A stretch of DNA of 56,608 nt from Deltaproteobacteria bacterium UBA4796. Its GTDB lineage: Bacteria > Desulfobacterota > Syntrophorhabdia > Syntrophorhabdales > Syntrophorhabdaceae. The stretch lies in NCBI GenBank assembly GCA_002402795.1, contig DHGO01000123.1, forward strand, positions 1-56,608, in the 5' to 3' direction. The notes beneath the pieces were generated by a model. That model did not search any database and had not been told where the DNA came from. It saw only the letters and a program-made list of their open reading frames with translations. Shown piece after piece: positions 1 through 12,622 of the stretch. The position numbers were made by a program, and so were the translations under genes. Every line of letters begins with the position of its first letter. Position 1 is the first letter of the stretch.

Positions 1-1564
1 TCCATTCCTTCGGAACCTTATACTTCTCCAATCTCTCCTCTGCAAACTTTGTCAATTCATTAACGAGCTTTTCTGAGGGTTCGTATCCATGTTTTAACTT
101 GATGCAGGCTCCTATTATTTCACCCTTCACCTTATCTGGAATCCCTATACAACCCACCATCATAACCGCTGGATGTCTACTGATTACATCTTCAATCTCA
201 TAAGGTGCAATCAGATAGCCTGAACTTTTTATGATATCTAAATCTCTTGCCTTGAACCAGACTATCCCTTTCTCATCCCTGTAAGCTAAATCGCCAGAAC
301 GGAACCATCCGTCCCTGACAACCTCTCTCTGCTTGTTCGGAAGCCTCCAATAAAAGGCACCTGCTGCACCACGAGCGGAGATTGTTCCTACCTTTCCGGC
401 AGGTAATTCTTCCCCTGTGGTTTCATCTACGATCTTAGCTTCATATCCATCATAAGGGAGACCTAAGGAAGTGGGTGGATGAACACCAGGCACAGTGCCT
501 ATGAAATTCCATATTTCTGTGTATCCATAAAAGTTGAAAATATTTGCCCCTGGAAAGGCTTCTTTAAGTGCTGACTCGAGTTCTTCTGTAAAGGTCTCAC
601 CCGCCGCCATCAGAAGCCTGACCCCGGCAAGACTGTATTTCGGTATCTCCGTCAACATCATCCTGTAGCCTGTGGGAACACATACTAAAACAGTTGCCTT
701 GTTCTGCTCCGCTGCCCTTAGAAAGTCTTCTGCAGTGAACCTCTCAACCAATATGCATGAGGCTCCTGTATATAGGGCGTACATCAGGGCTGCGTGACCG
801 TATGCAAAAGGCAGGGGTGGTGAAATACAGAGGATATCCTCTTCCCTTATTCCTGCAGTCTTTACAGTCCCTGCCACATGCCCCAATAGACCAACAGGTG
901 TCTGGATGCATCCTTTTGGGGGGCCTGTAGTTCCTGAGGTATAATGGATTAAGGCTACGTCATGGAAATATATCTTTTGAATCTGCAACTCTTCCGCTCC
1001 CTCTTCAACAAGTTTCTCCCAGATGAAGTACCCCTTCTCTCTATGTGCCTCCGTTCCTCCTGACACGATCACTTTAATATCACGTTTTAAGTCCATTCCA
1101 CATTTTTCGATCTCTTCAAGGAGCTCTGCACTAACTATAATGCCTTTTGTTTCTGAGTCTTTTATGATGTGAGTAAGTGAAGAGGCTTTCAGCAGAACGA
1201 ATGTTGGAATGCCGATGGCACCTATCTTCTGAATAGCCAAATCGCTTATAACAAATTGCGGGCTATTGTTCATCCTGAGCATAATCCTGTCACCTATCCC
1301 GATCCCGATCTTTTTCAGACTATTCCCGAGTTTATTTGACATCTGGGAAAGCTGACGATAAGTAAAGGATTTATCTTTAAAAAAGATCGCCGTTTTATTC
1401 CCTCTTCCCTGGTCGAGATGCCGTTCTACAAGGGACTGTGCCAAGTTAAAGTCTTCCGTCCAATCTACCAGGTTTGTTGGTTTTACGTACGGCCACCCAT
1501 CGGCTGGCGGCCAGTACTCTTTCGGCACCCTGGTTCTACGAAGCAATTCTTCTCTCATATCCAT
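1..1564 (-). CDS. AMP-forming aryl/acyl-CoA ligase (benzoate-CoA ligase-like); C-terminus cut by window edge
   Basis: Absent from the ORF track because there is no stop inside the window. My minus-strand translation from ATG 1564 gives MDMREELLRRTRVPKEYWPP... It carries the AMP-binding signature YTSGTTGPPKG, then GYTE and GDLAYRDEKG. It is the last gene of the minus-strand operon. Confidence 0.8.
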   Translation of the reverse strand, partial: MDMREELLRRTRVPKEYWPPADGWPYVKPTNLVDWTEDFNLAQSLVERHLDQGRGNKTAIFFKDKSFTYRQLSQMSNKLGNSLKKIGIGIGDRIMLRMNNSPQFVISDLAIQKIGAIGIPTFVLLKASSLTHIIKDSETKGIIVSAELLEEIEKCGMDLKRDIKVIVSGGTEAHREKGYFIWEKLVEEGAEELQIQKIYFHDVALIHYTSGTTGPPKGCIQTPVGLLGHVAGTVKTAGIREEDILCISPPLPFAYGHAALMYALYTGASCILVERFTAEDFLRAAEQNKATVLVCVPTGYRMMLTEIPKYSLAGVRLLMAAGETFTEELESALKEAFPGANIFNFYGYTEIWNFIGTVPGVHPPTSLGLPYDGYEAKIVDETTGEELPAGKVGTISARGAAGAFYWRLPNKQREVVRDGWFRSGDLAYRDEKGIVWFKARDLDIIKSSGYLIAPYEIEDVISRHPAVMMVGCIGIPDKVKGEIIGACIKLKHGYEPSEKLVNELTKFAEERLEKYKVPKEW

Positions 1565-1621
1565 AATGTCCGATTCTCCTTTAAAATGTTTATAAGCACA
1601 ATATACTCAAGTAAGGGGGTT

Positions 1622-1825
1622 CTATGAGGCATTGTGCCGCTCTGTTTGCTGGATGGCCTCCTTCCAGCAGTACTCGACACATAGCCTGCATGTTTTGCCA
1701 CAACAACTCTCCATGTCCACAGGAACGGCTTTCCCCTTCTCTATCTCATAAACCCCTACAGGACAGATGAACTTACAGTCGCCACACCCTGTGCACTTTG
1801 ACTCATCCACGCGAATTTTAACCAT
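1622..1825 (-). CDS. small 4Fe-4S ferredoxin-domain protein (C-terminal half of a split SdhB-like subunit?)
   Basis: CTGCGDCKFICP (CxxCxxCxxxCP) plus a second Cys group, CCGKTCRLCVEYC. I prefer the internal ATG at 1825 (MVKIRVD) because AAGGGGG lies 5 nt upstream. The track start at 1846 would overlap the upstream gene. Confidence 0.7.
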   Translation of the reverse strand: MVKIRVDESKCTGCGDCKFICPVGVYEIEKGKAVPVDMESCCGKTCRLCVEYCWKEAIQQTERHNAS

Positions 1826-2159
1826 TGCTACCCCCTTTTCTTTCAAAGTCTACAACCAAGTCCTTTATGATGGTGAACTTCCTATGGGGTTTTATAACCA
1901 TCTCCTTGGTGGCAGGCGTTTCACAGGCAAGAACAGGAGAGCCGTTCACTTCCATAACACATGCTCCGCATCTGGCAGGACCAACACCATCACAACCTGA
2001 CCTGAAAGCTATCTCCGCATCCTGGTTTTCATAAATCTGCCTCAGCACCTGAAGAACAGTGTGCCCTTTCCATTCTTCAACTTCGTAGGTCCTGTACTTA
2101 GGCTCTTTGTCTTTTGATGGATCAAACGCAAAAATCTTCACACTGGCCTTATCATTCAA
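1818..2159 (-). CDS. 2Fe-2S domain protein resembling the N-terminal domain of SdhB/FrdB
   Basis: Cys pattern CDGVGPARCGACVMEVNGSPVLAC (C-x8-C-x2-C-x11-C). Likely TTG start at 2159, preceded by AAGGAGGTG. The flavoprotein stop TAA lies between the RBS and this start. Confidence 0.7.
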   Translation of the reverse strand: MNDKASVKIFAFDPSKDKEPKYRTYEVEEWKGHTVLQVLRQIYENQDAEIAFRSGCDGVGPARCGACVMEVNGSPVLACETPATKEMVIKPHRKFTIIKDLVVDFERKGGSNG

Positions 2160-2160
2160 T

Positions 2161-3879
2161 TTACACCTCCTTATCAGGTTGAATAATACAGAAGTCAACA
2201 GGTTCCGTGGAGATCTTCATACCATCGCCTTCCTTGCTGATCATGATATGCTTCAACCAGCCTGGATCTGCCTTGGGAAAATCGATTCTTTCGTGAAGAC
2301 CCCTGGTCTCCGGTCTTGTCAGGGCCGAGGTACATACTAACTCCCCCACATCAAGCATATTGTTAACCTCCAGGGCATCAAGCCAGTCGAGATTAAAGGT
2401 TCTGTGCTTAGCTATCGTGGCCATTGCAGGGATATCATTCTCTCGGATTTGTTTGAGTTGTTCTATGGCTGTTTTCAACCCTGTCTCGTCCCTTGATAAC
2501 GTAGCATATGTGGATAGTATTTCTCGAATCTTCCTCTTTACTTCAATGGGTCTCTTACCTTTCGGTGATTTCAGGGGTGACATGATCTGCTGCGATAATT
2601 TTTCAACATCGCTTTTATTAATCTCTGGAAGGGGAGCTTCCTTTGCCCTTCGGGCTGCCTCTTCTCCACCCACTACACCCATGGCAAGGCAGAAGGTAAT
2701 AGAATTACCTGCCAGCCTGTCCGCTCCGTCTTTTCCGCCTGAGCCCACTTCTCCCACGGCGTATAGCCCCTTGTAGCTCGTTTCACACCTTTCATTGATC
2801 CAGCAGCCTCCCTGTACATAGTGAGCTGCAGGTGCAATCTCTATGGCATCACGACGTATATCTAAACCTGCATCCCTTAATTTTTCGAAGTAGTGAACGC
2901 CTGCTGCCCTTTCTAAGAAGTGGTTTATGAGATTTTCTGGCAGATGATGGAAGCTCATGTAAGCGCCACCGTGGGGAGAACCTCTCCCTTCCCTGACCTC
3001 GGTCGCAATCGCACGCCCAGCAGCCTCTCTTGTTACCCATTCCTTTTTTTCAGGATAATATCTTTCAAGAAATCTCTCGCCAAGAATGTTATAAAACTGT
3101 GGGTGAAGATTCACCCAGAGCAGGTATGGATAAATGTCACCCCGGGCATTGGCTGGCCAGAGGTGTGCACCGGGCATAAATTGCATAAACTCCATATCCA
3201 TCATCTTGGTACCGGCCCTGTAAGCCATGGCGTGACCATCGCCAGTAAGGTTCGGGTTTGCTGTCGTGAAGTTGTAGCAACCCATGAATCCCCCTGTTGC
3301 CAGAATTGTGGATTTTGCCCTGAATACTTCTGTTGAGCCTGATCTTAAGTCAAGCCCTACTACGCCTCCAACGGTGTTGTTGTGTACCAACAGATCTGTT
3401 GAGAAAAAATCCTCCTTCACTTTGATGTTTCGCCTCTTGATCTGTCTGTATAAAGCCTTTTTGTATTCAGGACCTAAAAAGAGACCTGGTTTGCCACAGA
3501 CACTTCGCGGAAGCGAATGTCCTGGAAAGGGCAACTGAGAGAACCGGTCATCTTCTTTTGCAAGCCTTACCCCCCACTTGTTCATATCCGAAACCACTCT
3601 GGGCCCAAGGGACAGAAATGTTTTTACAAGTGTTTGATTGTTCAGGTACCATCCTGCCTTTATTGAGTCTTTTATATGGGTTTCGATGCTGTCTGGCGGA
3701 TACAGGGCAACCTGGAAACCGTTTCCGGCCATCCACGCTGCTGCTCCATCTTTGCATATAGCACCTTTGTTTAAGATGATCACATCGACGCCGCTCTCCG
3801 AGGCTTCAATAGCTGCCCTGATGCCTGCAATACCTCCCCCTATGACAAGAACATCTGCCTTGTTTTCCACAAAACTCAT
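2161..3879 (-). CDS. FAD flavoprotein of the succinate dehydrogenase/fumarate reductase/aspartate oxidase superfamily, divergent
   Basis: N-terminal VLVIGGGIAGIRAA dinucleotide fold. Also TGDGHAMAYRAG, HYVQGG, GLYAVGEV, GADRLAGNS and a C-terminal ETRGLHERIDFP. The canonical QFHPT reads QFMPG, and no His is present at the covalent-FAD position. Confidence 0.75.
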   Translation of the reverse strand: MSFVENKADVLVIGGGIAGIRAAIEASESGVDVIILNKGAICKDGAAAWMAGNGFQVALYPPDSIETHIKDSIKAGWYLNNQTLVKTFLSLGPRVVSDMNKWGVRLAKEDDRFSQLPFPGHSLPRSVCGKPGLFLGPEYKKALYRQIKRRNIKVKEDFFSTDLLVHNNTVGGVVGLDLRSGSTEVFRAKSTILATGGFMGCYNFTTANPNLTGDGHAMAYRAGTKMMDMEFMQFMPGAHLWPANARGDIYPYLLWVNLHPQFYNILGERFLERYYPEKKEWVTREAAGRAIATEVREGRGSPHGGAYMSFHHLPENLINHFLERAAGVHYFEKLRDAGLDIRRDAIEIAPAAHYVQGGCWINERCETSYKGLYAVGEVGSGGKDGADRLAGNSITFCLAMGVVGGEEAARRAKEAPLPEINKSDVEKLSQQIMSPLKSPKGKRPIEVKRKIREILSTYATLSRDETGLKTAIEQLKQIRENDIPAMATIAKHRTFNLDWLDALEVNNMLDVGELVCTSALTRPETRGLHERIDFPKADPGWLKHIMISKEGDGMKISTEPVDFCIIQPDKEV

Positions 3880-3930
3880 ATTATACTCCTCTCACCTAAC
3901 GTTTTTTCAAGCCTTTTGATTTGCCGCCTT

Positions 3931-4344
3931 TTATTCTCCCTTTTTTATAATTTTATCCACTAATTCCTTTTTCTGCTTCCATCTCCTTTCCAGCTCCTCT
4001 GTCATTAACTCTTTCTTTATTTTTTCCTTGTCTTCAGACATCATTGATCTCAACATGTATCCCCTTCGGTCGCCCAGTTTCAGGGATTCAAAGACTGTTA
4101 TCTCTTCCGCTTCCTCCTCCCTTTCCATAATTTTTATATACCACTTTCCCTCAACGTAGCCACCTCTTTCCTGGATCAATAACTCGCTATATCCCTCTTC
4201 ATATGCCTCAGAAATCATTACCTTGGCTTGAAACTGCTCCTGTGTATCTTCATCTATTACTACTTGATCTACCACCTTACCCTGAATTCCTTTAACCATC
4301 TCCAGTCCCTTCTCTGGAACAAAGATTCTATATCTTTTTTCCAT
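3931..4344 (-). CDS. small acidic protein, paralogue of 5874-6128; putative accessory subunit of the UbiD-like enzyme
   Basis: Shares the motif AKVMIxEA...EGK(W/Y)(Y/H)IK(I/V)ME with the 84-aa ORF. Lies immediately downstream of a UbiD paralogue in the same operon. Confidence 0.6.
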   Translation of the reverse strand: MEKRYRIFVPEKGLEMVKGIQGKVVDQVVIDEDTQEQFQAKVMISEAYEEGYSELLIQERGGYVEGKWYIKIMEREEEAEEITVFESLKLGDRRGYMLRSMMSEDKEKIKKELMTEELERRWKQKKELVDKIIKKGE

Positions 4345-4364
4345 GGCTTACTTCCTTTTTCTTT

Positions 4365-5852
4365 TCACTTTATTTTGTATTCCCAAACCTTTGGACTGAG
4401 CTTCCACTTTTCATTCCAATTCTTAATTACCTTTTCTCTGATCTCTTTTGGAAAGCAGACCTCAAAAGTGGTCCTTCGAGGGACAGTGGCAGGATCTCTA
4501 TCCATTCTCCAGGTAGCATCAATATACATCCACGAACCAAGCTTTTCTCTAAAACTATGATTTTCCGTCAAGCCGAGCGGCTTTTCCATCTTGGGATAAA
4601 TATAGTAGTCCCTCTCAACATTTGCCTTGAAATTACGATCGGTGATAATCGTTGGAAGGTCTTCTGAATCTAAATCACCATCTACGACCAGCACCTGCCT
4701 TATAAACGGACTATAAGCAACCATCAGCTGTGCTGCCCGTCCTGGCAGCCCCGGTATAGGTTGAGCTGCTAATGAAACTATCCCGAGACAGAGTCTTGCC
4801 TCAACAGGTATTTCTAACCATTTAACCGGCACCCCGCTCATCCTGAGCATTCTCGTCAACTCGGCTGAATGGAATACTGAAAAAAGACACATAGAATCGC
4901 TCGGCCTGGCACCCTCGACTATAAAAGGCAAAATGGGGTTTTTGCGTTGAGTGATGCATTCAACCTGGTAAACAAAATTGTTCGGACTTCTCTCAAGATA
5001 ATATGATATCCCGGCAAAAGGACCTTCTTCTTTTGCAACCCCCGGATAGATGTGGCCTTCAAGGATAATCTCTGCCTCTGCAGGAACCAGGATATCACTC
5101 AATTGTGCCTTTACTAATGGGATGGAGTTAAGCCCCAATCCCCCGGCAAGACCATATTCGTCACTACCCTCGGGGGTGGATAAAACCGCTGTCATTATCA
5201 TCTCGGGAGGAGGCCCTACAACTACAGCAAATGGGGCTGGTTCACCCTTACTGTGGTATTTGCGAACAATCTCTTCGAAGTTACTGGGACGCGTACGGCG
5301 AGGGATACCTCCGTGGATCAATGTATTCCTGCCTGCCACCATCAACCTGTATACACCTATATTTGTCCATGCCTTCTCCTTGTCCCTCACCAATGTCACG
5401 TGAAAGGTCAGATACCTTCCACCATCCTGGTCATGAATCTTCGGGATGGGATACTTAAACAGATCCACGTTTTCTCCTTTTATCACCACCTCCTGGCAGG
5501 GACCGCTTTCGACCTCCATCGCTTTGATTGGCGTTTGCATTCTATCGATAACCGTCTCCAGAAGATCGCTGTAATGAGTATTGGCTTCCAAACCCAAAGC
5601 TATACACATACGCCCATGCATTCTACGGGGCACCTGAGGCCATTCTATAAAGCCTGGTCCGCATAACATACTTCCTGCCATGGACAGTCCTGGATAGTCT
5701 TTTACTTTATTAAACTGAATAGCAGGCCCTCCCACCCTCTGGGACATAGCACATAGTGCAGCTGCCTGTAGTTCATAATCCACTTCTTCATTTATAACAT
5801 TCAATTCACCTCTTGCCTTCAACTCCTCTAAAAAATTCCTGAAAGCTCCCAT
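4365..5852 (-). CDS. UbiD-family (prFMN-dependent) decarboxylase/carboxylase, paralogue 2
   Basis: 495 aa. The N-terminus FRNFLEELKARGELNVINEEVDYELQ...GGPAIQF fits the UbiD N-terminal signature (LRDFL..L...GEL..I...VD...GGPA.LF). Confidence 0.8.
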   Translation of the reverse strand: MGAFRNFLEELKARGELNVINEEVDYELQAAALCAMSQRVGGPAIQFNKVKDYPGLSMAGSMLCGPGFIEWPQVPRRMHGRMCIALGLEANTHYSDLLETVIDRMQTPIKAMEVESGPCQEVVIKGENVDLFKYPIPKIHDQDGGRYLTFHVTLVRDKEKAWTNIGVYRLMVAGRNTLIHGGIPRRTRPSNFEEIVRKYHSKGEPAPFAVVVGPPPEMIMTAVLSTPEGSDEYGLAGGLGLNSIPLVKAQLSDILVPAEAEIILEGHIYPGVAKEEGPFAGISYYLERSPNNFVYQVECITQRKNPILPFIVEGARPSDSMCLFSVFHSAELTRMLRMSGVPVKWLEIPVEARLCLGIVSLAAQPIPGLPGRAAQLMVAYSPFIRQVLVVDGDLDSEDLPTIITDRNFKANVERDYYIYPKMEKPLGLTENHSFREKLGSWMYIDATWRMDRDPATVPRRTTFEVCFPKEIREKVIKNWNEKWKLSPKVWEYKIK

Positions 5853-5873
5853 CTTTTTCCCTCCTTATTCTTT

Positions 5874-6128
5874 TTAATCGTCAAACGGTGAGGGTAATAT
5901 CTCCATTACCTTTATATGATACTTCCCCTCAGCATGAGGTTCACTAAAGGGTCCCAAGAGCCCCACCGGTTCGCTCCCCTTTACAGCTTCACTGAATATC
6001 ATCACCTTTGCTTGTTTCCATGTCTTTTCATTCTGATCCATTATCTCCATTTCTGTAGGTGTATTCTTATCTATGGAATCCTTTTTCCTGTCAAGCTCTT
6101 CCTTATATAACCAGTAATTTACTGCCAT
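5874..6128 (-). CDS. small protein, paralogue of 3931-4344; putative accessory subunit
   Basis: 84 aa with the motif QAKVMIFSEA...EGKYHIKVME. Lies between the two UbiD paralogues. Confidence 0.6.
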   Translation of the reverse strand: MAVNYWLYKEELDRKKDSIDKNTPTEMEIMDQNEKTWKQAKVMIFSEAVKGSEPVGLLGPFSEPHAEGKYHIKVMEILPSPFDD

Positions 6129-6165
6129 TTTTCACCCCTCCATTCTTTCTAAAATTTATTTCTCC

Positions 6166-7683
6166 TTAAAGCTTGGCCTCTAACCACGACCTATTGCTAC
6201 GAGGCTCCTCTTTAAACCCTAACCTACCCCAGTTCTCCATCACCCATTTCTGCAGCCTTTCAGGAAAGAGCGTCTCAAGGTTAAGCCTCTTCGCACCCAT
6301 TGGCGGCTCCTCCTTTGTGGTAGCATCAATGACCAATTTCTGTGAAAGGATGGTTCCTGGTCCTGTAAATTTGTCTCTATCCCACTCCTCCATCCAGGAA
6401 GCTTCGATTGTCATTACAGGGAATGGATTTGTTTTGCTCATGTCCCTCGCAGGATTCACCTGGTTAAACATCGCCTCATAAAAATCCCCATAATCGAGAA
6501 TGTTCACATCATCATCGAAGAAGACATCCTTGGAAAGGACACCTCCCATCCCGGGCTGGCCCATTACTATATTCTTCACATCTTCCATAAAGCCAGGGTA
6601 GTCTTCAGGGTATTTCTTCTTATATACCCCTGCATGACCTGTAGCCCCTGTACGTGGTATTGAAACAGAACAACCAAATTTAAGAGGCAGACCAAACATC
6701 TTGATCTGGCCCCAGTAACCTAAATGCCCCAAACTATCATGTAAAGCATTCGTGCTGCTCCCTATGGAAGTATGGATGTCCCAAATAATGGGGTTCTTCC
6801 GATGTGTGATGCAGTGTACTCTGATTGGATAGAAGGGTTGCCTTGGACCAACAGAGAAACCAAAAGCCTCAATCTTTGGTCCCTCAGGAAGTCTCTCATA
6901 GGGCCTTATCTCACCCTCAATAACTATCTCAGCATTTGCAGGAACAAGAAGGTCTGAGGTCTCTGCCTTTACAAGTTCCATGGGGACCCCTCTTATCCCC
7001 CCTGCTATATCATATTCTGTAACACCAGGAGGCATAATCATTCCCGCTGCCATTGTCACCGCTGGATCGCCTCCAAGACATACCGCAACAGGCATGCTTT
7101 GTCCCCTCAACTGATATTTTGTGTTATAGATACTTACAAAATTCGTATGGGCATAGGGTGTTACCACCAATCGGTTCCTTGAGAAGACTTCTATCGCATA
7201 ATTACCCGTATTTATCCAGAATGAGTCAGGATCTCTAATCACCACAGCATTGATAAAGATATACCTCCCTCCTTCACCTATAGCATGGTAAGTGAAAGGG
7301 AAATTCAGGAGGTTAATATCCTTCCCTTTCAAAACCACCTCTTTACAGGGCCCCTTAGCCACTTCAACAGGTCTCAACATATTCATCATCCTTCTGGCAA
7401 GTTCCTGGTACCACTGGGCCCTATCAAGATCTGGATCGATTCCCAAGGCTATTGCAGCCTTTCTATGGGGCCTATAGAAAGTGCCCACAAAGGGTGCTGC
7501 AAGAACCCTCGTGCCCTTGGAAGTGCCTTTAATGTTGTTGAATAAAAAAGCAGGACCACCAAATCTTCCCCCGATCACTTCATATGCAGGTATTTCGTAA
7601 TTCCAGTCCACTTCATCATCGATCTCTCTTAACTCACCTACCTTCCTCAAATCCTCCACAAAATCCCTTAAATCATACGCCAT
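6166..7683 (-). CDS. UbiD-family (prFMN-dependent) decarboxylase/carboxylase, paralogue 1
   Basis: 505 aa. N-terminus MAYDLRDFVEDLRKVGELREIDDEVDWNYE...GGPAFLF. Confidence 0.8.
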   Translation of the reverse strand: MAYDLRDFVEDLRKVGELREIDDEVDWNYEIPAYEVIGGRFGGPAFLFNNIKGTSKGTRVLAAPFVGTFYRPHRKAAIALGIDPDLDRAQWYQELARRMMNMLRPVEVAKGPCKEVVLKGKDINLLNFPFTYHAIGEGGRYIFINAVVIRDPDSFWINTGNYAIEVFSRNRLVVTPYAHTNFVSIYNTKYQLRGQSMPVAVCLGGDPAVTMAAGMIMPPGVTEYDIAGGIRGVPMELVKAETSDLLVPANAEIVIEGEIRPYERLPEGPKIEAFGFSVGPRQPFYPIRVHCITHRKNPIIWDIHTSIGSSTNALHDSLGHLGYWGQIKMFGLPLKFGCSVSIPRTGATGHAGVYKKKYPEDYPGFMEDVKNIVMGQPGMGGVLSKDVFFDDDVNILDYGDFYEAMFNQVNPARDMSKTNPFPVMTIEASWMEEWDRDKFTGPGTILSQKLVIDATTKEEPPMGAKRLNLETLFPERLQKWVMENWGRLGFKEEPRSNRSWLEAKL

Positions 7684-7719
7684 TTTCCTTACCCCCTTTC
7701 AGGTATTGAATTATAAAAT

Positions 7720-8646
7720 TCAATTACCCTTTATAGTTTCGCAGTGTTTGACAACTGCGTTCACTACTGCATCCATGGCCTTTGCCTCTTCGCTACCCGG
7801 GTATTTAATCACAAAAGGCTCGCCATCGTCCAGACTTGTACTTACCTTAATAGAAACGGGGACCTTGACAAGGAAAGATACCTCTTCTTCTCTCGCCATT
7901 CTTTCACCTGCACCACTCGAAATAATACTAGCAGGCTCACCACATTCAGGGCAATTCGTATCGCTCATGTTCTCGACAACCCCAATAATTGGTATCCTGG
8001 CACTTTTCAGAATATAGATGCATTTTCTCGCCACATTTTGAGATATCTGCGATGGAACCGTTATGACCACACCTCCGGCAATATCCGGCATATACTTAAG
8101 AATGTTTACAGTCTCTGAACTTGTCCCTGCAGGTATATCTGCTATCAAGTACTCCGTATCTCCGTAATCTACAGCAGCGAGTAATTCTTCGGTAGCATTT
8201 CTCTTCATCTCGTGAAACCAGATAATTACCTCATCCTGGTCAAGTATCAACCCTGTAGAAATAACCCTGACACCCCATTTGCTTTCGTATGGTATAAGTC
8301 CCTTTTCACCTATCATTAATCTGGCATCCCCTGAAACACCCAACATCATAGGAACAGCAGGGCAATCGTAGACCTGATCCAGAAGGGCAACCTTTTTTCC
8401 TCTTTTTGCTAAGGCTGCTGCAAGGTTAACAGCCAGCATGGATTTCCCCACTCCTCCTTTTCCTCCCAATACAACAATTTTATATTTGACATTTTTAAGA
8501 TTTTCTCTGATCAAACTCAGAATACCTTTCTGTTTAAAAATCTCCTTGACAGAAAGATCGCATTCAAAATATTTTTCACAATCCTCGCACTTTTTGTTAC
8601 ACCCTTCTGTCACATTCAATTCTTTTAATTCGGTTTCAACACCCAT
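7720..8646 (-). CDS. Mrp/NBP35-family P-loop ATPase with N-terminal Cys4 motif
   Basis: Deviant Walker A GGKGGVGKS. N-terminal CNKKCEDCEKYFEC (C-x3-C-x2-C-x5-C). C-terminal CPECGE CxxC, typical of Mrp/ApbC/NBP35. Confidence 0.8.
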   Translation of the reverse strand: MGVETELKELNVTEGCNKKCEDCEKYFECDLSVKEIFKQKGILSLIRENLKNVKYKIVVLGGKGGVGKSMLAVNLAAALAKRGKKVALLDQVYDCPAVPMMLGVSGDARLMIGEKGLIPYESKWGVRVISTGLILDQDEVIIWFHEMKRNATEELLAAVDYGDTEYLIADIPAGTSSETVNILKYMPDIAGGVVITVPSQISQNVARKCIYILKSARIPIIGVVENMSDTNCPECGEPASIISSGAGERMAREEEVSFLVKVPVSIKVSTSLDDGEPFVIKYPGSEEAKAMDAVVNAVVKHCETIKGN

Positions 8647-8672
8647 TGGACGCCTCCTGACAATTTTGAACT

Positions 8673-9599
8673 TTAAAGCCTCTGTAAAATTTCTTCTTCT
8701 AATCTCCTTGCAATCTCTTTCATCTTCTCGGAAACGGGATTGGATGGGAATTTGTAAACAAATGGAACCCCTTTATCACATGCTTCTGCTACCTCTGGAT
8801 GTAACGGCAATCTGCCCAGGAAAGGAACGCCCAGTTCTTTGGCTAAAGCCTCTCCTCCTCCCCTTTTCATAAGGTCAAATTCTTTTCCACATTTCCCACA
8901 TATATAGCCACTCATATTTTCTATTATTCCCAATACCTTACTTCCGGCTTTTGCAGAAAGCAAGGTAGCTTTTCTTGCTGCAAGTTGTGATACTGCAGGG
9001 GGAACGGTAACGGTGATGGTTCCATCCAGATCCGGTATATATTGTAAAAGGTTACAGGCATCCGAACTTGTACCAGGTGGAAGATCTACAATGAGGTAAT
9101 CCCTCTCCCCATAGTCAACATTGGCCAGGAACTCCTCGGTGGTTCCCCTCCTCATCTCGTGAAACATGGTTATTACCTCATCTGGATATACTAATGCCAT
9201 TGATATAACCTGCATTCCTAAACCCAAGGTGTCTTCGGCCGGTATTATTCCCTGTGTACCATATCTCAACTTTTTTACTCCCTGAACTCCTAACATTCTT
9301 GGTATGGTAGAACCGTCAAAGTCCTGATCCAGAATAGTAACCTTCCTTCCCATCATTGCCAAAGCAGTTGCAAGATTCGTACTCACTGTAGATTTACCAA
9401 CCCCTCCCTTTCCTCCGGAGATAGTAATCTTATGTTTGATATTTGACATCTTTTTGATGGCCTGTGCCATCCTTCTACGCCGATAGATTTTCCATTTCAT
9501 CTCATCACGGCAATCAAAAAATCTTTCGCAATTTTCACATTTATGATCACACCTCAGCTCCACATTGATACTTATAACCTCGCGTGCTTCCTGGCCCAT
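8673..9599 (-). CDS. Mrp/NBP35-family P-loop ATPase with N-terminal Cys4 motif (paralogue)
   Basis: GGKGGVGKS, N-terminal CDHKCENCERFFDC and C-terminal CGKCGKE. First gene of the operon. Confidence 0.8.
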   Translation of the reverse strand: MGQEAREVISINVELRCDHKCENCERFFDCRDEMKWKIYRRRRMAQAIKKMSNIKHKITISGGKGGVGKSTVSTNLATALAMMGRKVTILDQDFDGSTIPRMLGVQGVKKLRYGTQGIIPAEDTLGLGMQVISMALVYPDEVITMFHEMRRGTTEEFLANVDYGERDYLIVDLPPGTSSDACNLLQYIPDLDGTITVTVPPAVSQLAARKATLLSAKAGSKVLGIIENMSGYICGKCGKEFDLMKRGGGEALAKELGVPFLGRLPLHPEVAEACDKGVPFVYKFPSNPVSEKMKEIARRLEEEILQRL

Positions 9600-9681
9600 T
9601 TTACCTCCTTATTTTTAATTAGAAATTATCCTACTTACAAACAAGCTCCCCCGCTATTATTAATTAATCAGGAACGATGAT

Positions 9682-9711
9682 ATAATAAAATTAATCTCGA
9701 TTTTATGTCAA
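9682..9711 (-). promoter_or_regulatory. possible sigma70-type promoter of the carboxylase operon
   Basis: On the minus strand, TTGACA (9711-9706), an 18-nt spacer, then TATTAT (9687-9682), about 80 nt upstream of the start at 9599. Confidence 0.3.
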
Positions 9712-9884
9712 GTAGAAAATTGTATGGAAAAAGGAGCAACTCTTTTATAATGTTTTTATATGAACATATCTCCAATGTTTTTTTGATATTTGCCACTCAC
9801 CATCATAGTAAGCTCGGGACATATTTTTATATCCATCTGAACAGGGCGGGTGCTTTATTCCGCTACCTTAAGGTAATCCTACCA

Positions 9885-10022
9885 GAAATCATTGAACCGG
9901 ACCCCGTTCTTGATGACATTGTAAATCCCGATCAATATCCTGCGGGCAATGGAGGCAAATTGAACGAGTCTGCGAATCAGACAGTAGCGGATTTCGTCCG
10001 GGCGGTATTGGGTGATCCCTCG
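9885..10022 (-). pseudogene. short transposase-like gene fragment
   Basis: The minus-strand frame reads ITQYRPDEIRYCLIRRLVQFASIARRILIGIYNVIKNGVRFNDF and then hits a stop. No start, no full ORF, and higher GC than the flanks. Confidence 0.3.
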
Positions 10023-10182
10023 TAAGCCAGCCATAGACTTCTATTCGAACGACTTCGAGATTTCTCTTTAGTTGCCCCGGAAAGAATTCTTGAGGACCTC
10101 CATTTTTTCTTGACTTTTATTTCGAAAACAGGGCAAAAGGGACCGGGAGAAATTCAGTCAGCTTCGGCAGACTCTTCTTCGC

Positions 10183-10542
10183 TTGGCCGGCGGAATTAAG
10201 GGACTGGTCGAACCTTTGTTTTCTCATCGCCCGGTGATCAAAGGAACGGTCTATGAGCTGAAGTGCAGATGTGGAAAGCCGGGCTGTAAGTGTGCTCGTG
10301 GGGAATTGCATGCGCGTATGGTGGTCGGCGCCAGCGAAGGAGGCAAGACCCGGTTGCAGGTCATTCCCCGTGGATTTCTCGTTGAGGTTCAAGCGAAGGT
10401 GCGGCGTTATCAGGAGTTGCGGCGGGTTCGAGCCCGACTGGGAGAGATTTATCGGAAGATGCTGGGGGTGATGGATCAGATGGAGGCGATGCGTCGGGAG
10501 GAGATGTCTTCATCGGGGAAGAGGCGCCTGGGAGGGGATTAG
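10183..10542 (+). CDS. small Cys-rich protein of the DUF6788-like type (often seen next to IS/integrative elements)
   Basis: YELKCRCGKPGCKCARGELH motif followed by a basic helical tail. Sits in a GC-rich island clearly different from the flanks. Confidence 0.45.
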   Translation: MAGGIKGLVEPLFSHRPVIKGTVYELKCRCGKPGCKCARGELHARMVVGASEGGKTRLQVIPRGFLVEVQAKVRRYQELRRVRARLGEIYRKMLGVMDQMEAMRREEMSSSGKRRLGGD

Positions 10543-10831
10543 CCGAGATGGACCTGGTGATCTTTGAGCAGAACAAGCCGCTCGTCCTGGAGGAGGGACT
10601 GGGCAACGGAGGGTTTGACTACATCGAGGCGGCCAGCGAGGTCTTTGAGGCCGATTTCTTCCGGTTTATCAAAGCTCGGCCTATCTGGATGAGTTGGCAG
10701 AGACCTATTCCATGTCCTGGAAGAAAGTTGATACAATTGTCGATATAATGCGTTTTTTCATGGTCTAAAATTGCCTCTCGATGCTATACTGTCAAGGATT
10801 TGCGTCGTCAAAAATTCAAGAGGCTGAGATA

Positions 10832-11069
10832 ATGGGTAAAAAAACTGTCCTTATTGCGGTTCAAACAATACCAGGAAAAAAGGTTATATAAGAAACAGCG
10901 CTAACGGTATCAGTGTAAATTGTGCGATAGGCAGTTTCAAAATCACTCACGGCAGAAACGGTTAGAGCAAGTTCTGTGGAATGACTATGTCTATCAGCGA
11001 CAACCATACATCAGCTATCAGAAAAACATGAGAGGGGCAAAGACAGAAGATGAGAGAATGGGTGGATGA
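10832..11069 (+). pseudogene. N-terminal zinc-ribbon fragment of an IS transposase, disrupted
   Basis: MGKKTVLIAVQTIPGKKVI-stop, then in another frame RYQCKLCDRQFQNHSRQKRLEQVLWNDYVYQRQ. Truncated where the octamer repeat tract begins. Confidence 0.35.
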
Positions 11070-11071
11070 GG

Positions 11072-11146
11072 AATAAAGGCAATAAAGGCAAGGCACAGAG
11101 GCACAGAGGCAATAAAGGCAAGGCACAAAGGCACAGAGGCACAAGG
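11072..11146. repeat. tandem GGCACAGA/GGCACAAA/GGCAATAAA repeat tract (octamer family)
   Basis: Direct reading gives GGCAATAAA GGCAA GGCACAGA GGCACAGA GGCAATAAA GGCAA GGCACAAA GGCACAGA GGCACAAG. Confidence 0.9.
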
Positions 11147-11222
11147 GGAAGGAAGGGATAAAAAAGGTTGACAGAACTTTTTGTTATTGTTAGTTTTTGG
11201 AAAAAATCATAGAGGAGGGATT

Positions 11223-11438
11223 ATGAAGAGCGAAAGCAGGGTTGCAAGGGTTACTGAGGTCATTGCCGGTTCTCCAAAAAGCTTTGAAGATGCAGTGACT
11301 GTGGGTTTCAAGAGGGCTGCAAAAACCCTACGGGGCATTACTGGTTTGAAGGTAAGTGATATGCGGTGCAAGGTTGAGGATGGGAAGATTGTGGAGTACA
11401 GGGTAACACTGGAGGTACTATTTATACTGGAAAGTTAA
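11223..11438 (+). CDS. dodecin-family small flavin-binding protein
   Basis: MKSESRVARVTEVIAGSPKSFEDAVTVGFKRAAKTLRGITGLKVSDMRCKVEDGKIVEYRVTLEVLF fits the dodecin pattern. ATG 11223 has AGAGGAGGG upstream, so the track start at 11181 is unlikely. Confidence 0.7.
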   Translation: MKSESRVARVTEVIAGSPKSFEDAVTVGFKRAAKTLRGITGLKVSDMRCKVEDGKIVEYRVTLEVLFILES

Positions 11439-11462
11439 TAAAGGCACAGAGGCACAGAGGGC
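11437..11462. repeat. octamer-family repeat (AATAAAGGCACAGAGGCACAGAGG)
   Basis: Same units as 11072-11146, immediately after the dodecin stop. Confidence 0.85.
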
Positions 11463-11603
11463 GAAGGACTCTCTGGAACGATAACCGAGGACGCCTTGGG
11501 GACTCCCAGTTATGATGAGGTGGGTGTCCATGATACATCGAGTGAGCCGAATCTTACTGGGGTAAGGTGCCCGGAGTAAAAGAGTGGAAGACAGGCTTCG
11601 CAA

Positions 11604-11623
11604 CAAAGGCAAGGCACAGAGGG
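11604..11623. repeat. octamer-family repeat (AAAGGCAAGGCACAGAGGG)
   Basis: Same units again, just before the GT2 gene stop. Confidence 0.8.
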
Positions 11624-11635
11624 AAGGGCGAATCA

Positions 11636-12622
11636 CTATTTACGGGATCTATTAGAGCGGAGGCCGAAGCTATCGGGATAGCCTGAGAGGCTCCAGAGAA
11701 GAAGGCGGGCATAGTAGGAATAGCTACGACGAATCTTTTTATTGAAGAGTAGAAAGGGCAGGCAGGTTGTACATATAATAAAAATGGAGGTTTTGATAAA
11801 ACGTATCCACTGGAATAGAATGTAGTAAGGAAGGGAATGATGTTTTTTTATAAACTTGTGTAATGAAATATTATATTCGATCCTCCCCTTCACCCATGCC
11901 TTTCGGACGGTTTGTCCCTGAAGGTGAATAACCTTCACGTCTGGTAAGAATACTACCCTCTGCCCCATGCCCCTTGCCCTTAAGCAAAGATCTGTCTCTT
12001 CAAGAAAGAAAAAGAATTGTTCATCAAACCCTCCTAATCTTTTCAGAAGTGATTTTCTTACAAGAATAGCAGCACCAATGAGGGAGGGAACATCTATGAT
12101 ACAGTGACTGGTGATTGATGACTGATGACTGGTGACTGGGGACCGGTGATTGGTGATAGGTGACTGGTGACCGGGAATTAGTAAAAACTGTGGAAGGAGT
12201 TCGGAGAGGAGGGAGGGGACTACTGCAAGGGAGCGCTGAAACCGCATATCAGGAAATACAAGCTGGGGACCGCAGATACCCACATCTTTGTGTTCTTCCA
12301 TAAAATGGAGCATCTTCACAACCTCGCCATCTATGAGGCGTGTGTCAGAATTGAGAAAGAGCAGATAATCACCTTTAGCACGGGTAATTCCCATGTTTGC
12401 TGAAGCTGCAAATCCCTTGTTCTCATTGTTTTTCAAATATTGAAGAGAAGGAAATTTCTCCCTTATCATTACCTCTGTCCCATCTGTTGAGCCATTGTCT
12501 ATTATAATAATATCCTGTATGTATGGTTTAAGGGATGTGTCCTTCTCAATCGAAAGTAGAAGGGATTTCAGAAGTTGTTCTGTATCTTTTGTAATGATAA
12601 TGATTGAAAGTATAGAAGCCAT
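11636..12622 (-). CDS. family-2 glycosyltransferase
   Basis: N-terminal IIIITKD...IIIIDNGSTDGT GT2 signature. Contains an in-frame heptamer-repeat insert (HQSPITNHRSPVTSHQSSITSH). Confidence 0.75.
   Translation of the reverse strand: MASILSIIIITKDTEQLLKSLLLSIEKDTSLKPYIQDIIIIDNGSTDGTEVMIREKFPSLQYLKNNENKGFAASANMGITRAKGDYLLFLNSDTRLIDGEVVKMLHFMEEHKDVGICGPQLVFPDMRFQRSLAVVPSLLSELLPQFLLIPGHQSPITNHRSPVTSHQSSITSHCIIDVPSLIGAAILVRKSLLKRLGGFDEQFFFFLEETDLCLRARGMGQRVVFLPDVKVIHLQGQTVRKAWVKGRIEYNISLHKFIKKHHSLPYYILFQWIRFIKTSIFIICTTCLPFLLFNKKIRRSYSYYARLLLWSLSGYPDSFGLRSNRSRK
12104..12173. repeat. heptamer tandem repeat GTGAYYG, about 10 units, inside the GT2 gene
   Basis: GTGACTG GTGATTG ATGACTG ATGACTG GTGACTG GGGACCG GTGATTG GTGATAG GTGACTG GTGACCG. 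Confidence 0.9.

Follow-up and report, generated by a model that had tools for sequence, protein, structure and literature searches.

The function assigned to carboxylase complexes of the N47 type, rare enzymes proposed to carboxylate naphthalene and phenanthrene anaerobically, derives from proteomic data, native gels, and assays of extracts. The naphthalene carboxylase complex is described as an assembly of UbiD-like subunits, two ParA/MinD-like ATPases, and small linker proteins (PMC10570749, PMC12016498). Naphthalene is carboxylated by N47 extracts, a complex of ~750 kDa has been proposed, and its ATP dependence is debated (PMC12016498). The UbiD subunit NPH_5859 is up-regulated on naphthalene (PMC2988823), and the orthologues of the cluster core in Desulfatiglans TRIP_1 are highly expressed on phenanthrene (PMC6849830). 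In addition, Sdh/Frd-type Fe-S and flavoprotein genes lie beside the clusters of N47 (N47_K27410/K27400/K27390) and NaphS2 (NPH_5879/5880) (PMC6849830).

Here, we analyze a locus in a 56,608-nt stretch of DNA (the window) from Deltaproteobacteria bacterium UBA4796. The host is likely a syntrophic, Syntrophorhabdaceae-like anaerobe, and within our analysis the family assignment comes from one housekeeping protein. Phenol, hydroxybenzoate, and phthalate isomers serve as substrates for cultivated Syntrophorhabdus.

A minus-strand operon of at least 16 genes

All 10 minus-strand genes listed in the first-pass annotation are present in the order it gave, and each label is backed by Pfam and NCBIfam (Table 1). 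That annotation had treated the ten genes as the whole operon; they instead cover the upstream two-thirds of an operon comprising at least 16 genes. A public contig that matches the window without mismatch over 9,700 nt carries the operon past the window edge, where genes for UbiD-3, a DUF5678 protein, a Mo-bisPGD enzyme, FmdE, a corrinoid protein, and DctP (TRAP binding protein) follow. Intergenic distances among the 10 genes range from −8 to 57 nt. For the 2Fe-2S protein, public gene calls place the start at 2159 and the longest open reading frame at 2198.

Table 1. Features of the UBA4796 locus, in window coordinates unless another locus is named
Feature	Position	Strand	Match or remark
Candidate sigma-70-type promoter	9682..9711	-	TTGACA-18-TATTAT, 11/12 matches
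Mrp/NBP35-type ParA ATPase 1	8673-9599	-	PF10609, E 4e-69
Mrp/NBP35-type ParA ATPase 2	7720-8646	-	PF10609, E 2e-64
UbiD-1	6166-7683	-	PF01977, E 1e-55
84-aa protein	5874-6128	-	no Pfam family
UbiD-2	4365-5852	-	PF01977, E 3e-55
137-aa protein	3931-4344	-	no family match
Sdh/Frd-type flavoprotein	2161-3879	-	FAD_binding_2, E 9e-61; Succ_DH_flav_C, E 1e-25
2Fe-2S protein	1818-2159	-	Fer2_3, E 4e-24
2x[4Fe-4S] ferredoxin	1622-1825	-	Fer4 families
AMP-forming acyl/aryl-CoA ligase	2-1564	-	AMP-binding, E 1e-70; 521/545 aa, cut by window edge
140-nt perfect direct repeat, part of copy 1	1..25		no strand; window ends inside copy
140-nt repeat copies	locus L093, 11801-11940 and 13780-13919

A strong ribosome-binding site (AAGGAGG) sits just upstream of the first ATG at 9599, and a candidate promoter is located 80 nt upstream of the same ATG. 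The latter is the top-scoring sigma-70-like site in positions 1 to 11,700; since the total number of such sites does not exceed chance, it is the position that supports this candidate. We found no sigma-54 site upstream of the operon.

The ubiX gene directly follows the core in TRIP_1, NaphS2, and one MAG, unlike in the UBA4796 operon. Consistent with the first-pass annotation, the window contains no ubiX by tblastn with the E. coli UbiX query (best E 0.9) and no UbiX Pfam match among its other large open reading frames, and the gene was not found in the extension beyond the window either. A dodecin gene is located upstream of the UBA4796 operon, and a riboflavin kinase gene is present in N47.

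The six-gene core and its orthologues

Genes 1 to 6 are collinear, gene-for-gene orthologues of N47_K27520 to K27470, the core of the naphthalene carboxylase cluster, with identities of 67% (ATPase 1 and K27520), 62% (ATPase 2 and K27510), 50% (UbiD-1 and K27500), 30% (84-aa protein and K27490; E 5e-8), 54% (UbiD-2 and K27480), and 47% (137-aa protein and K27470; E 1e-32). They are nearer to two candidate phenanthrene carboxylase clusters of TRIP_1 than to N47 (80 and 71% for the ATPases, 62 and 59% for UbiD-1 and UbiD-2), and UbiD-1, also the orthologue of NPH_5859, reaches 75% identity to a Desulforudis MAG. The six-gene order is likewise observed in NaphS2, TRIP_1 (twice), and MAGs of Desulforudis, Syntrophales, and Desulfobacteraceae. 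In a scan of 185,579 species, with one genome per species, only 8 genomes hold UbiD-1 orthologues with at least 50% identity, 3 of them from known naphthalene or phenanthrene degraders, and the next matches reach at most 34%. The layout resemblance to the naphthalene carboxylase cluster and the presence of ParA/MinD-like ATPases in such clusters, both noted in the first-pass annotation, were borne out. This orthology supports the view that the operon encodes a putative multisubunit system for aromatic (de)carboxylation of the UbiD type, similar in kind to naphthalene carboxylase, for which we infer a substrate and a reaction direction below. The N47 cluster differs in having an AbcA/PpcA-like subunit (K27540) and a K27460-type subunit, both absent from the UBA4796 operon.

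ATPase 1 combines an N-terminal Cx3Cx2Cx5C motif with a deviant Walker A motif (GGKGGVGKS) and CGKCG, and its top PDB matches are Cfd1 and the Mrp/ApbC Fe-S carriers. The same Cys motifs occur in ATPase 2, in the form CPECG, and in the alignment the Cys motifs and Walker A are kept in 10 of 10 ATPase orthologues. The 84-aa protein shows weak similarity to the N-terminal half of its 137-aa counterpart, suggesting weak paralogy, and this half is weakly similar to the phenylphosphate carboxylase gamma-like K27530. Proteins of the K27470 type are represented by only 23 clusters at E ≤ 1e-3 among 1.84 billion proteins.

The UbiD orthologues fall into clean clusters, with 49 to 76% identity within and 23 to 33% between them, and UbiD-1 is at most 33% identical to other UbiD clades. 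In both UbiD-1 and UbiD-2, the catalytic Glu-Arg-Glu triad is incomplete by one residue. UbiD-1 has Ala at the Fdc1-Arg173 position while both Glu residues and the metal/phosphate ligands are retained, and across its clade all 48 homologues with at least 45% identity carry Ala, Cys, Ser, or Gly instead of this Arg. UbiD-2 has Gly at the Fdc1-Glu282 position (HMMER alignment to Fdc1, multiple alignment), with Arg173, Glu277, and the metal ligands retained; Gly, Ser, or His occupies this position in all seven orthologues. The intact triad is found only in UbiD-3, outside the window, whose clade is canonical at all positions. UbiD-3 also scores above the TIGR00148 cutoff of 245 bits (321 bits), whereas UbiD-1 remains below it (205 bits). 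Neither UbiD-1 nor UbiD-2 reaches any NCBIfam equivalog cutoff, including those for UbiD, menaquinone decarboxylase, VdcC, PpcA, and PpcB, which leads us to reject VdcC and the quinone biosynthesis UbiD as identities, and phenylphosphate carboxylase too, as the scores fall far short of the PpcA and PpcB cutoffs. Phthaloyl-CoA decarboxylase was likewise rejected, with matches no better than E 1e-7 to 1e-11.

A separate conserved unit behind the core

Genes 7 to 10 belong to a separate conserved unit (unit B) of flavoprotein, Fe-S protein, ligase, Mo enzyme, and transporter. We observe this unit without UbiD in five other loci from other Desulfobacterota, in which the flavoprotein orthologues are 53 to 82% identical and no UbiD gene lies within 10 kb; the ligase is always found beside the flavoprotein, and the Mo enzyme and transporter usually are present. 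One of these loci (L092) is a collinear orthologue of unit B (59 to 77% identity), with a ligase 68% identical to that of the operon and the Mo-enzyme gene directly after the ligase gene. Just outside the window, the UbiD-3/DUF5678 cassette is flanked by the copies of a 140-nt perfect direct repeat, which corresponds to the 3' end of the ligase gene. The core and unit B have been joined a second time, independently, in L089/L090, where the genes are arranged differently and the flavoprotein shares only 56% identity.

The flavoprotein, first gene of unit B, is soluble and SdhA/TfrA-like, scoring 406 bits against a TfrA cutoff of 718. Aligned to E. coli SdhA, it lacks the covalent-FAD His and carries other residues in place of His242 and Thr254, while Arg286, His354, and Arg399, one carboxylate-binding and proton transfer set, are retained; this pattern is constant across its clade. 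The loss of the second-carboxylate residues suggests that it acts on a nonfumarate acid rather than on fumarate or succinate. The 2Fe-2S protein is equivalent to the SdhB N-terminal domain and the ferredoxin to a second SdhB-like part, and in related loci the two are fused into one protein of 188 to 191 aa; the ferredoxin shares 70% identity with the C-terminal portion of the L092 fusion protein. The ligase stays under every NCBIfam cutoff, including that of benzoate-CoA ligase (226 versus 375 bits), and its top PDB matches are an Acs-like enzyme, anthranilate-CoA ligase, and benzoate-CoA ligase.

Overall, the first-pass interpretation stands for the type of UbiD complex and the ATPases. Besides the operon extent, it has to be revised for the redox module, which it had placed in no described system although the TRIP_1 paper reports Sdh-like neighbors for the N47 and NaphS2 clusters (PMC6849830), and for the flavoprotein, Fe-S proteins, and ligase, which belong to an independent conserved unit rather than exclusively to the carboxylase. 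Since unit B occurs without UbiD elsewhere, an aryl-CoA ligase serving the carboxylase is an interpretation and not a finding.

A proposed mosaic operon and competing explanations

We favor, with a probability of roughly 60%, an operon in which a naphthalene/phenanthrene carboxylase-type UbiD core (unit A) has been joined with unit B as an independent, recombined acid-processing unit. Unit A would comprise the two ATPases, UbiD-1 with its 84-aa partner, UbiD-2 with its 137-aa partner, and UbiD-3 with its DUF5678 partner. UbiD-3 would be the prFMN-dependent catalytic subunit and, through the cycloaddition mechanism suggested for naphthalene carboxylase, would reversibly attach CO2 to the ring of an unsubstituted or polycyclic arene. 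UbiD-1 and UbiD-2, with cofactor phosphate/metal ligands retained, may be auxiliary or noncanonical components of a large heteromer that the small proteins hold together, and the ATPases are probably either where the direct ATP dependence described for the N47 enzyme resides or assembly factors. Unit B would contribute the SdhA-like flavoprotein, the split SdhB-like Fe-S chain, the AMP ligase, the Mo-bisPGD enzyme, FmdE, the corrinoid protein, and the TRAP binding protein, and the two units may be coupled through the ligase, which would convert the aromatic acid to its CoA thioester and thereby pull a slightly endergonic carboxylation. Several points weigh against this mosaic: ubiX is absent from both window and extension, the operon has no counterpart of the N47 subunits K27540 and K27460, UbiD-3 is only ~30% identical to any N47 UbiD, and in one Syntrophales MAG UbiD-1 paralogues adjoin 4-hydroxybenzoyl-CoA reductase-like genes, which suggests phenolic substrates. 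Furthermore, to our knowledge no enzyme of the N47-type family has been purified or reconstituted, and we know of no cultivated Syntrophorhabdus that uses polycyclic aromatic hydrocarbons.

An imported carboxylic acid would suit the TRAP binding protein and the acid-handling unit B no less well than a hydrocarbon. An acid-catabolic operon would import an aromatic carboxylic or dicarboxylic acid by TRAP, activate it with the ligase, process it with the flavoprotein and Mo enzyme, and decarboxylate it with the UbiD complex, whose likeness to hydrocarbon carboxylases would reflect common chemistry and not physiology. UbiD reactions are reversible, DctP lies within the same operon, unit B is linked across its loci to TRAP or ABC transporters (usually present) and to MarR regulators, cultured relatives of the likely Syntrophorhabdaceae host break down aromatic acids, and a relative of the flavoprotein is found in Syntrophorhabdus MAG PtaU1, named presumably for a terephthalate-degrading reactor. 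However, the six-gene core otherwise occurs in hydrocarbon degraders, with orthologues induced by naphthalene or phenanthrene, similarity to phthaloyl-CoA decarboxylase is not meaningful, and unit B, without UbiD in most loci, needs no decarboxylase; we thus consider this explanation somewhat unlikely. A phenol-type pathway appears unlikely. Here a hydroxylated or heterocyclic aromatic would be carboxylated by UbiD and ligated to CoA, and its substituent removed or altered by the Mo enzyme and the flavoprotein/Fe-S chain, paralleling the series phenylphosphate carboxylase, 4-hydroxybenzoate-CoA ligase, and 4-hydroxybenzoyl-CoA reductase (4-HBCR). UbiD-1-type genes do adjoin 4-HBCR-like XDH-family Mo enzymes and ligases in three loci from other genomes (L012, L015, and L088), a Mo-bisPGD enzyme recurs beside the core in this subclade, UbiD-3 scores best against the hydroxyarylic acid decarboxylase VdcC (311 bits), and the small subunits weakly resemble the phenylphosphate carboxylase gamma subunit. 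Yet the operon contains neither phenylphosphate synthase nor a HAD-type delta subunit, its Mo enzyme is of the bisPGD and not the 4-HBCR family, and the PpcA/PpcB scores argue against it as well.

It is very unlikely that the redox module serves the cofactor, with the SdhA-like flavoprotein and Fe-S proteins, possibly together with the Fe-S ATPases, oxidizing prFMNH2 to the iminium form without O2. The maturation of prFMN in strict anaerobes is described as unsettled, with dedicated maturases or chaperones elsewhere (PMC13040415, PMC10865409), and a PNPOx-like gene lies beside the Sdh-like genes of N47 and NaphS2 (PMC6849830). The nearby flavin-related genes (dodecin here, riboflavin kinase in N47) and the at least two independent fusions of units A and B also agree with such a role, but the flavoprotein orthologues of the five UbiD-free loci and the retained carboxylate-binding Arg/His set do not. 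Finally, most homologues are publicly annotated as "4-hydroxy-3-polyprenylbenzoate decarboxylase," which would make the UbiD paralogues housekeeping enzymes of quinone biosynthesis or small-acid decarboxylation. This role is effectively refuted: besides the missed equivalog cutoffs, identity to E. coli UbiD is 26 to 27%, the paralogues are rare and patchily distributed, and their genes lie inside a multisubunit catabolic operon.

Shared gene core of the operon and its relatives

All ten minus-strand genes that the first-pass annotation had arranged into one operon are present in the window in the order it gave, with intergenic distances of -8 to 57 nt. Eight of the ten give unambiguous profile matches (Pfam, NCBIfam), and the 84-aa and 137-aa proteins match no family in either collection. 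The first gene is preceded by a strong ribosome-binding site and by a sigma-70-like site (TTGACA-18-TATTAT), the best scoring of the region. A sigma-54 promoter was considered because sigma-54 activators lie upstream of the clusters of Desulfobacterium sp. N47 and of genome GCA_052915985.1 (L088), and was rejected: no site is found upstream of position 9599, and the window has as many matches as chance predicts. No riboswitch or other leader RNA emerges from Rfam, which returns only a tRNA and a retroelement RNA elsewhere in the window. The ligase gene is interrupted by the window edge, with 521 of its 545 codons inside, and a public metagenome contig (L093), identical to the window over 9700 nt, continues the operon with genes encoding, in order, UbiD-3 (475 aa), a DUF5678 protein (84 aa), a Mo-bisPGD oxidoreductase (698 aa), FmdE, a corrinoid protein and a TRAP solute-binding protein. 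That the window lacks UbiX, as the first-pass annotation stated, is borne out by tblastn of E. coli UbiX against the window and L093 (best E 0.9), and ubiX is likewise not found among the window's other ORFs. It sits after the core in the phenanthrene degrader TRIP_1 (candidate Desulfatiglans), in the naphthalene degrader NaphS2 and in a further compared locus (L019).

The best named match of UbiD-1 is a protein of N47, encoded in its published naphthalene carboxylase cluster (PMC12016498). By BLASTP against N47, each protein of the six-gene core pairs with the protein at the same position: ATPase 1 with K27520 (67% identity), ATPase 2 with K27510 (62%), UbiD-1 with K27500 (50%), the 84-aa protein with K27490 (30%, E 5e-8), UbiD-2 with K27480 (54%), and the 137-aa protein with K27470 (47%, E 1e-32). 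UbiD-1/K27500 and UbiD-2/K27480 are mutual best matches and thus orthologues, the two Mrp/ParA-MinD-like ATPases lie directly upstream in the N47 order with their motifs conserved, and a small "linker" protein of the K27490 or K27470 type follows each UbiD. The six orthologues keep this order in N47_K27540-K27460 and in NPH_5855-5865 of NaphS2. We therefore place the six-gene core with strong confidence among the gene clusters of polycyclic aromatic hydrocarbon (PAH) carboxylases, a correspondence that does not extend to the K27540 and K27460 subunits or to ubiX. Neither the window nor the 8.6-kb extension encodes an orthologue of the PpcA/AbcA-like K27540 or of the gamma-like K27530, and the K27460-type UbiD, present in N47, NaphS2 and L088, is absent here, as are the HAD hydrolases and Toluene_X porin of N47. 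In place of these missing components the window system has UbiD-3 and DUF5678.

In a scan covering 185,579 species with one genome each, UbiD-1 orthologues of at least 50% identity occur in at least 8 genomes and 13 loci, a genome count that is a lower bound since the scan rests on two peptide patterns; the next matches fall to 34% or less. The genomes are those of N47, NaphS2 and TRIP_1 (two clusters), a Desulforudis MAG, two Syntrophales MAGs, a Desulfobacteraceae MAG and a Chloroflexi MAG, and the six-gene order is preserved in every contig of sufficient length. Among 1.84 billion proteins, small proteins of the K27470 type make up only 23 representative clusters, so the system is rare.

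The window core is nearest to TRIP_1 and the Desulforudis MAG (UbiD-1, 62-75%; ATPase 1, 80-82%), and its identities to N47 (30-67%) are lower than those to TRIP_1. The two candidate phenanthrene carboxylase clusters of TRIP_1 are the closest relatives with any experimental study, their genes being strongly expressed on phenanthrene (PMC6849830). They share with the window the arrangement ParA-ParA-UbiD-small-UbiD-small (80, 71, 62, 37, 59 and 51% identity), and TRIP_1 also has an orthologue of UbiD-3 (57-58%) close to a DUF5678 gene. Unlike the window, TRIP_1 has ubiX directly after the core, UbiD-3/DUF5678 at a distance of 5-8 kb on the opposite strand, and no SdhA-like, ligase or Mo unit within 10 kb; its host is a sulfate reducer, whereas the window host is a likely member of Syntrophorhabdaceae. 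The N47 enzyme has been proposed to be a complex of ~750 kDa comprising UbiD-like subunits, two ParA/MinD-like ATPases and linker proteins (PMC12016498, PMC10570749), and NPH_5859, the NaphS2 orthologue of UbiD-1, is up-regulated on naphthalene (PMC2988823). Upstream of the N47 cluster (L007, 915-3247) we also observe a fused double Mrp/ParA protein (629 aa) and a CTP-dependent (archaeal-type) riboflavin kinase, a further flavin-related gene beside such a cluster.

UbiD subunits, ATPases and small proteins

The UbiD sequences fall into five clean clades, with 49-76% identity inside and 23-33% across. Residues were mapped by HMMER alignment to Fdc1 (PDB 7nf0, numbering checked) and E. coli UbiD. 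The UbiD-1/K27500 clade keeps Asn168, Glu233, Glu277 and Glu282 and has Arg173 replaced, and the UbiD-2/K27480 clade keeps Arg173 and Glu277 and has Gly, Ser or His for Glu282 in 7/7 orthologues. The canonical Glu277-Arg173-Glu/Asp282 triad is hence incomplete in both window proteins (Ala at position 173 in UbiD-1, Ala163 in its own numbering; Gly at position 282 in UbiD-2), each of which keeps Asn168 and Glu233, and N47 and NaphS2 show the same triad-deficient patterns. Every position is canonical in the UbiD-3 clade, as are the catalytic triad and cofactor ligands in the K27540 clade; the K27460 clade is without the cofactor ligands Asn168 and Glu233. Among 110 full-length UbiD-1 homologues, Arg173 is replaced by Ala, Cys, Ser or Gly in all 48 with at least 45% identity and kept in 55 of the 62 more distant ones; the replacement is clade-defining. 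The general UbiD family cut-off is passed by UbiD-3 and missed by UbiD-1 and UbiD-2. Since UbiD-1 and UbiD-2 each lack a triad residue and UbiD-3 is canonical, the two paralogues around which the first-pass annotation built its proposal turn out to be the non-canonical ones; the catalytic subunit is likely UbiD-3, just outside the window.

UbiD-3 was considered as an orthologue of K27540 and rejected, having 30-32% identity and a clade of its own, and DUF5678 shows no significant similarity to the phenylphosphate-carboxylase-gamma-like K27530 as whose homologue it was tried. The two most conserved UbiD subunits of these clusters are each without one catalytic residue, which directs experiments to a different subunit, namely UbiD-3 in the window lineage and the K27540 type in N47.

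Both ATPases belong to the Mrp/NBP35/Cfd1 family, with full-length matches to PF10609 and Cfd1 as best PDB match; their scores lie below the MrpORP and ApbC equivalog cut-offs, so that only family membership is assigned. An NBP35-like N-terminal Cx3Cx2Cx5C motif, a deviant Walker A and a CxxC motif of the bridging-cluster type are conserved in 10/10 orthologues compared, except that CxC replaces CxxC in ATPase 1 of N47 and NaphS2, and these motifs fit Fe-S-binding ATPases. In the literature accessed we found no description of either the Fe-S motifs of these ATPases or the clade-wide complementary triad loss of the UbiD subunits, both of which may still be described. K27530, the 84-aa protein and the 137-aa protein in its N-terminal half show weak mutual similarity, which suggests one small partner for each UbiD subunit.

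The L088 cluster encodes four UbiD paralogues (UbiD-1, UbiD-2, UbiD-3 with DUF5678, and a K27460 type), is preceded by PAS/sigma-54 activator and transposase genes, and continues with a ligase, an XDH-type FAD subunit and a Fer2-Mo enzyme. The presence of a T4SS TraN gene close by hints at a mobile setting. The Syntrophales MAG SMAG_U8302 (L009, L010, L012, L015, L016) holds at least five UbiD-1-type paralogues, two of them directly after a ferredoxin 58% identical to that of the window, with the ATPases missing. Their neighbours encode 4-hydroxybenzoyl-CoA-reductase-like XDH-family Mo enzymes, an HGD-D/benzoyl-CoA-reductase-family protein, a thiolase and ligases.

The flavoprotein unit and its junction with the carboxylase genes

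Compared with E. coli SdhA, whose numbering is used here, the flavoprotein clade keeps Arg286, His354 and Arg399. The covalent-FAD His45 is replaced by Gly and His242 by Met (hydrophobic in the clade), and the Thr254 loop is shortened by a 5-residue deletion that ends in Pro, a pattern that holds in 11 clade members. The flavoprotein misses the NCBIfam cut-offs for Sdh, Frd, NadB and TfrA, the last being its top model at 406 bits against a cut-off of 718, and is not assigned to succinate dehydrogenase/fumarate reductase; given the altered active site and these scores, it is not a standard fumarate reductase. On the aligned residues, one carboxylate-binding/proton-transfer set is retained and the second-carboxylate site is lost, which argues for a different acid as substrate, possibly a monocarboxylate or half-thioester. 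Like thiol:fumarate reductase TfrAB and the soluble Sdh/Frd flavoenzymes, it combines FAD_binding_2 and Succ_DH_flav_C domains with an SdhB-like 2Fe-2S and 4Fe-4S chain and has neither membrane anchor nor covalent-FAD His. Unlike TfrAB, it has a hydrophobic residue for His242, the shortened loop and no HdrD-like CCG domain, and unlike either group, flavoproteins of the window type always come with an AMP ligase.

Proteins 50-82% identical to the flavoprotein are widespread among Thermodesulfobacteriota, Syntrophorhabdus, Desulfatiglandales and Chloroflexi. In five loci without UbiD within 10 kb, the flavoprotein gene adjoins one for an SdhB-like Fe-S protein, before or after it, that is fused (188-191 aa) or split as in the window; an AMP ligase and usually a Mo-bisPGD enzyme (~700 aa) complete the set, with TRAP/ABC transporters, MarR regulators, corrinoid/RACo proteins and methyltransferase/radical-SAM genes nearby. 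One of these loci, L092, is collinear with the window unit (flavoprotein, 72%; Fe-S parts, 64% and 70%; ligase, 68%; Mo enzyme, 59%; DctP, 77%). The flavoprotein and Fe-S genes singled out as a "redox module" in the first-pass annotation thus belong to a separate conserved unit of flavoprotein, Fe-S protein, ligase and Mo enzyme. Beside the N47 and NaphS2 clusters, too, genes for Sdh-like Fe-S proteins and flavoproteins have been listed, the likeness being one of annotation (PMC6849830).

In the UbiD-free L092 the Mo-enzyme gene directly follows the ligase gene, and in the window lineage a 1.8-kb UbiD-3/DUF5678 cassette lies between the two, flanked by a 140-nt perfect direct repeat that takes in the final ~96 nt of the ligase gene and a further 44 nt. 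The window contig, like a JGI contig, terminates at this repeat. The arrangement looks like a recent cassette insertion, with the caveat that 140 nt equals k-1 of a k141 assembly. A further fusion of carboxylase core and flavoprotein unit (L089/L090) has another gene order and a flavoprotein 56% identical to that of the window, from which we conclude that the two were joined at least twice.

The flavoprotein/Fe-S/ligase unit recurs in the contexts of L091, L092, L102 and P0123, with the Mo enzyme in all but L091. Its larger neighbourhood holds a corrinoid protein, a RACo-type activase, a UbiE-like methyltransferase, a radical-SAM protein with HMPTM zinc ribbon, DUF7479, a second (PaaK-like) AMP ligase and an ~840-aa Hdr/GltD-like protein, and appears to be an uncharacterised anaerobic catabolic supercluster.

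Interpretation, host and surroundings

How strict anaerobes attach CO2 to unactivated benzene, naphthalene and phenanthrene is a long-standing question; to our knowledge no such arene carboxylase has been purified, and the role of ATP is disputed. In the best-supported reading, the core together with UbiD-3 and DUF5678 encodes a putative multi-subunit prFMN-dependent aromatic carboxylase of the N47/TRIP type; the flavoprotein, its Fe-S partners, the ligase and the Mo enzyme belong to an acid-processing unit joined to it by recombination, whose ligase would convert the carboxylated product to a CoA ester and so trap it. A reading of the operon as an aromatic-acid decarboxylation system is unlikely, and one of the phenol type less likely still; both are kept because the operon encodes a TRAP binding protein, the host is likely a member of Syntrophorhabdaceae and the paralogues in the Syntrophales MAG have 4-hydroxybenzoyl-CoA-reductase-like neighbours. 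Phthaloyl-CoA decarboxylase shows no full-length similarity, with partial matches to 8oz5 and 8pmk (E 7e-11 and 7e-7). Phenylphosphate carboxylase PpcABCD of Thauera and Aromatoleum is likewise a multi-subunit aromatic carboxylase with two UbiD-fold large subunits, a small gamma-type subunit and a subsequent CoA ligase step. Mrp/NBP35 ATPases are not part of it, neither a HAD-type delta/phosphatase subunit nor phenylphosphate synthase is encoded in the operon, and UbiD-1 and UbiD-2 score at best 168 bits against the PpcA model (cut-off 565) and 153 bits against the PpcB model (cut-off 469). By cluster layout, the putative anaerobic benzene carboxylase AbcAD of Peptococcaceae, with BzlA, UbiX and an MRP homologue, likewise brings together a UbiD subunit, a small PpcC-like subunit, a CoA ligase and an MRP-type gene, but has a single UbiD large subunit and ubiX, unlike the window (PMC5852087).

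Since it mostly occurs without UbiD, the redox unit is unlikely to take part in anaerobic prFMN maturation, and the close flavoprotein orthologues in UbiD-free loci weaken the idea of a dedicated maturase. More improbable than the decarboxylation and phenol-type readings, we consider, is a proposal in which the ATPase pair and the two triad-deficient but cofactor-competent UbiDs would form an ATP-driven redox-active module that primes or redox-cycles prFMN, or an arene-prFMN adduct, for UbiD-3, with the SdhAB-like chain as electron sink or source; the ATPase pair has two conserved Fe-S-type Cys motifs in a SIMIBI-fold layout resembling that of the nitrogenase Fe protein. If true, anaerobic arene carboxylation would be energy- and electron-coupled and not a simple reversible UbiD reaction.

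Returning to the carboxylase reading, PAH carboxylase clusters are already known as a kind of system. New here are the likely Syntrophorhabdaceae host, UbiD-3 replacing the K27540-type subunit, the fusion with a conserved uncharacterised flavoprotein/Fe-S/ligase/Mo unit, and the recombination scar. The locus extends the rare N47-type core to likely syntrophic Syntrophorhabdaceae, beyond the sulfate reducers studied, brings out ATPases with conserved Fe-S-type motifs, and separates the recurrent Sdh-like "redox module" as an independent unit fused with carboxylase genes at least twice. With its function predicted, the case sharpens the arene-carboxylation question and offers testable constructs.

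SerA, encoded beyond the operon along with IorAB and aminotransferases, has its closest named relatives in Syntrophorhabdaceae/Syntrophorhabdales MAGs (64-75%), and a Firmicute host, considered from the SleB-like hydrolase and a 75% Desulforudis MAG match, was set aside for this reason. The contig is present in runs SRR1313281-85, SRR943334 and SRR5324166 and in the JGI sets 3300001580 and 3300002703, which are presumably hydrocarbon-resource metagenomes.

Positions of features in the window, or in L093 where named
Feature	Position	Strand	Remark
Sigma-70-like site	9711-9682	minus	precedes first operon gene
Four small genes	9750-11438	plus	upstream of operon, opposite strand; two are 91-aa and 66-aa ORFs
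DUF6788 protein	10183-10542	plus	one of the four
Dodecin	11223-11438	plus	one of the four
IorA	12668-14521		indolepyruvate:ferredoxin-oxidoreductase-like
IorB	14518-15078		as IorA
424-aa ORF	15178-16452		no Pfam match
Class I/II aminotransferase	16427-17536		
tRNA-Leu(taa)	20561-20648		at one end of prophage
Mu-like transposable prophage	20748-56150		to window end; also Gam, GemA, Mu F, gp36, tail genes
Diversity-generating retroelement	20748-24786		in prophage
Reverse transcriptase	20748-21803		retroelement
RT-14 RNA	21814-21965		retroelement
Template repeat	21963-22066		retroelement
bAvd	22074-22418		retroelement
D12 adenine methyltransferase	22457-23356		within retroelement region
Variable repeat	23493-23596		86% identical; in the following ORF, reported at 3' end
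Variable-repeat ORF	23482-24786		434 aa, no Pfam match
SleB-like hydrolase	35406-35882		prophage
Terminase	41183-42538		prophage
Mu portal	42587-44149		prophage
MuB-like AAA protein	51224-51907		prophage
Mu transposase	52305-54467		prophage
S24 repressor	55455-56150		prophage
140-nt perfect direct repeat	L093 11801-11940 and 13780-13919		flanks cassette; window 1-25 inside copy 1

The stretch from IorA to the aminotransferase may be an aromatic amino acid or arylpyruvate module. Dodecin is a flavin-binding/storage protein, which makes its gene notable beside a flavin-cofactor-dependent enzyme system.
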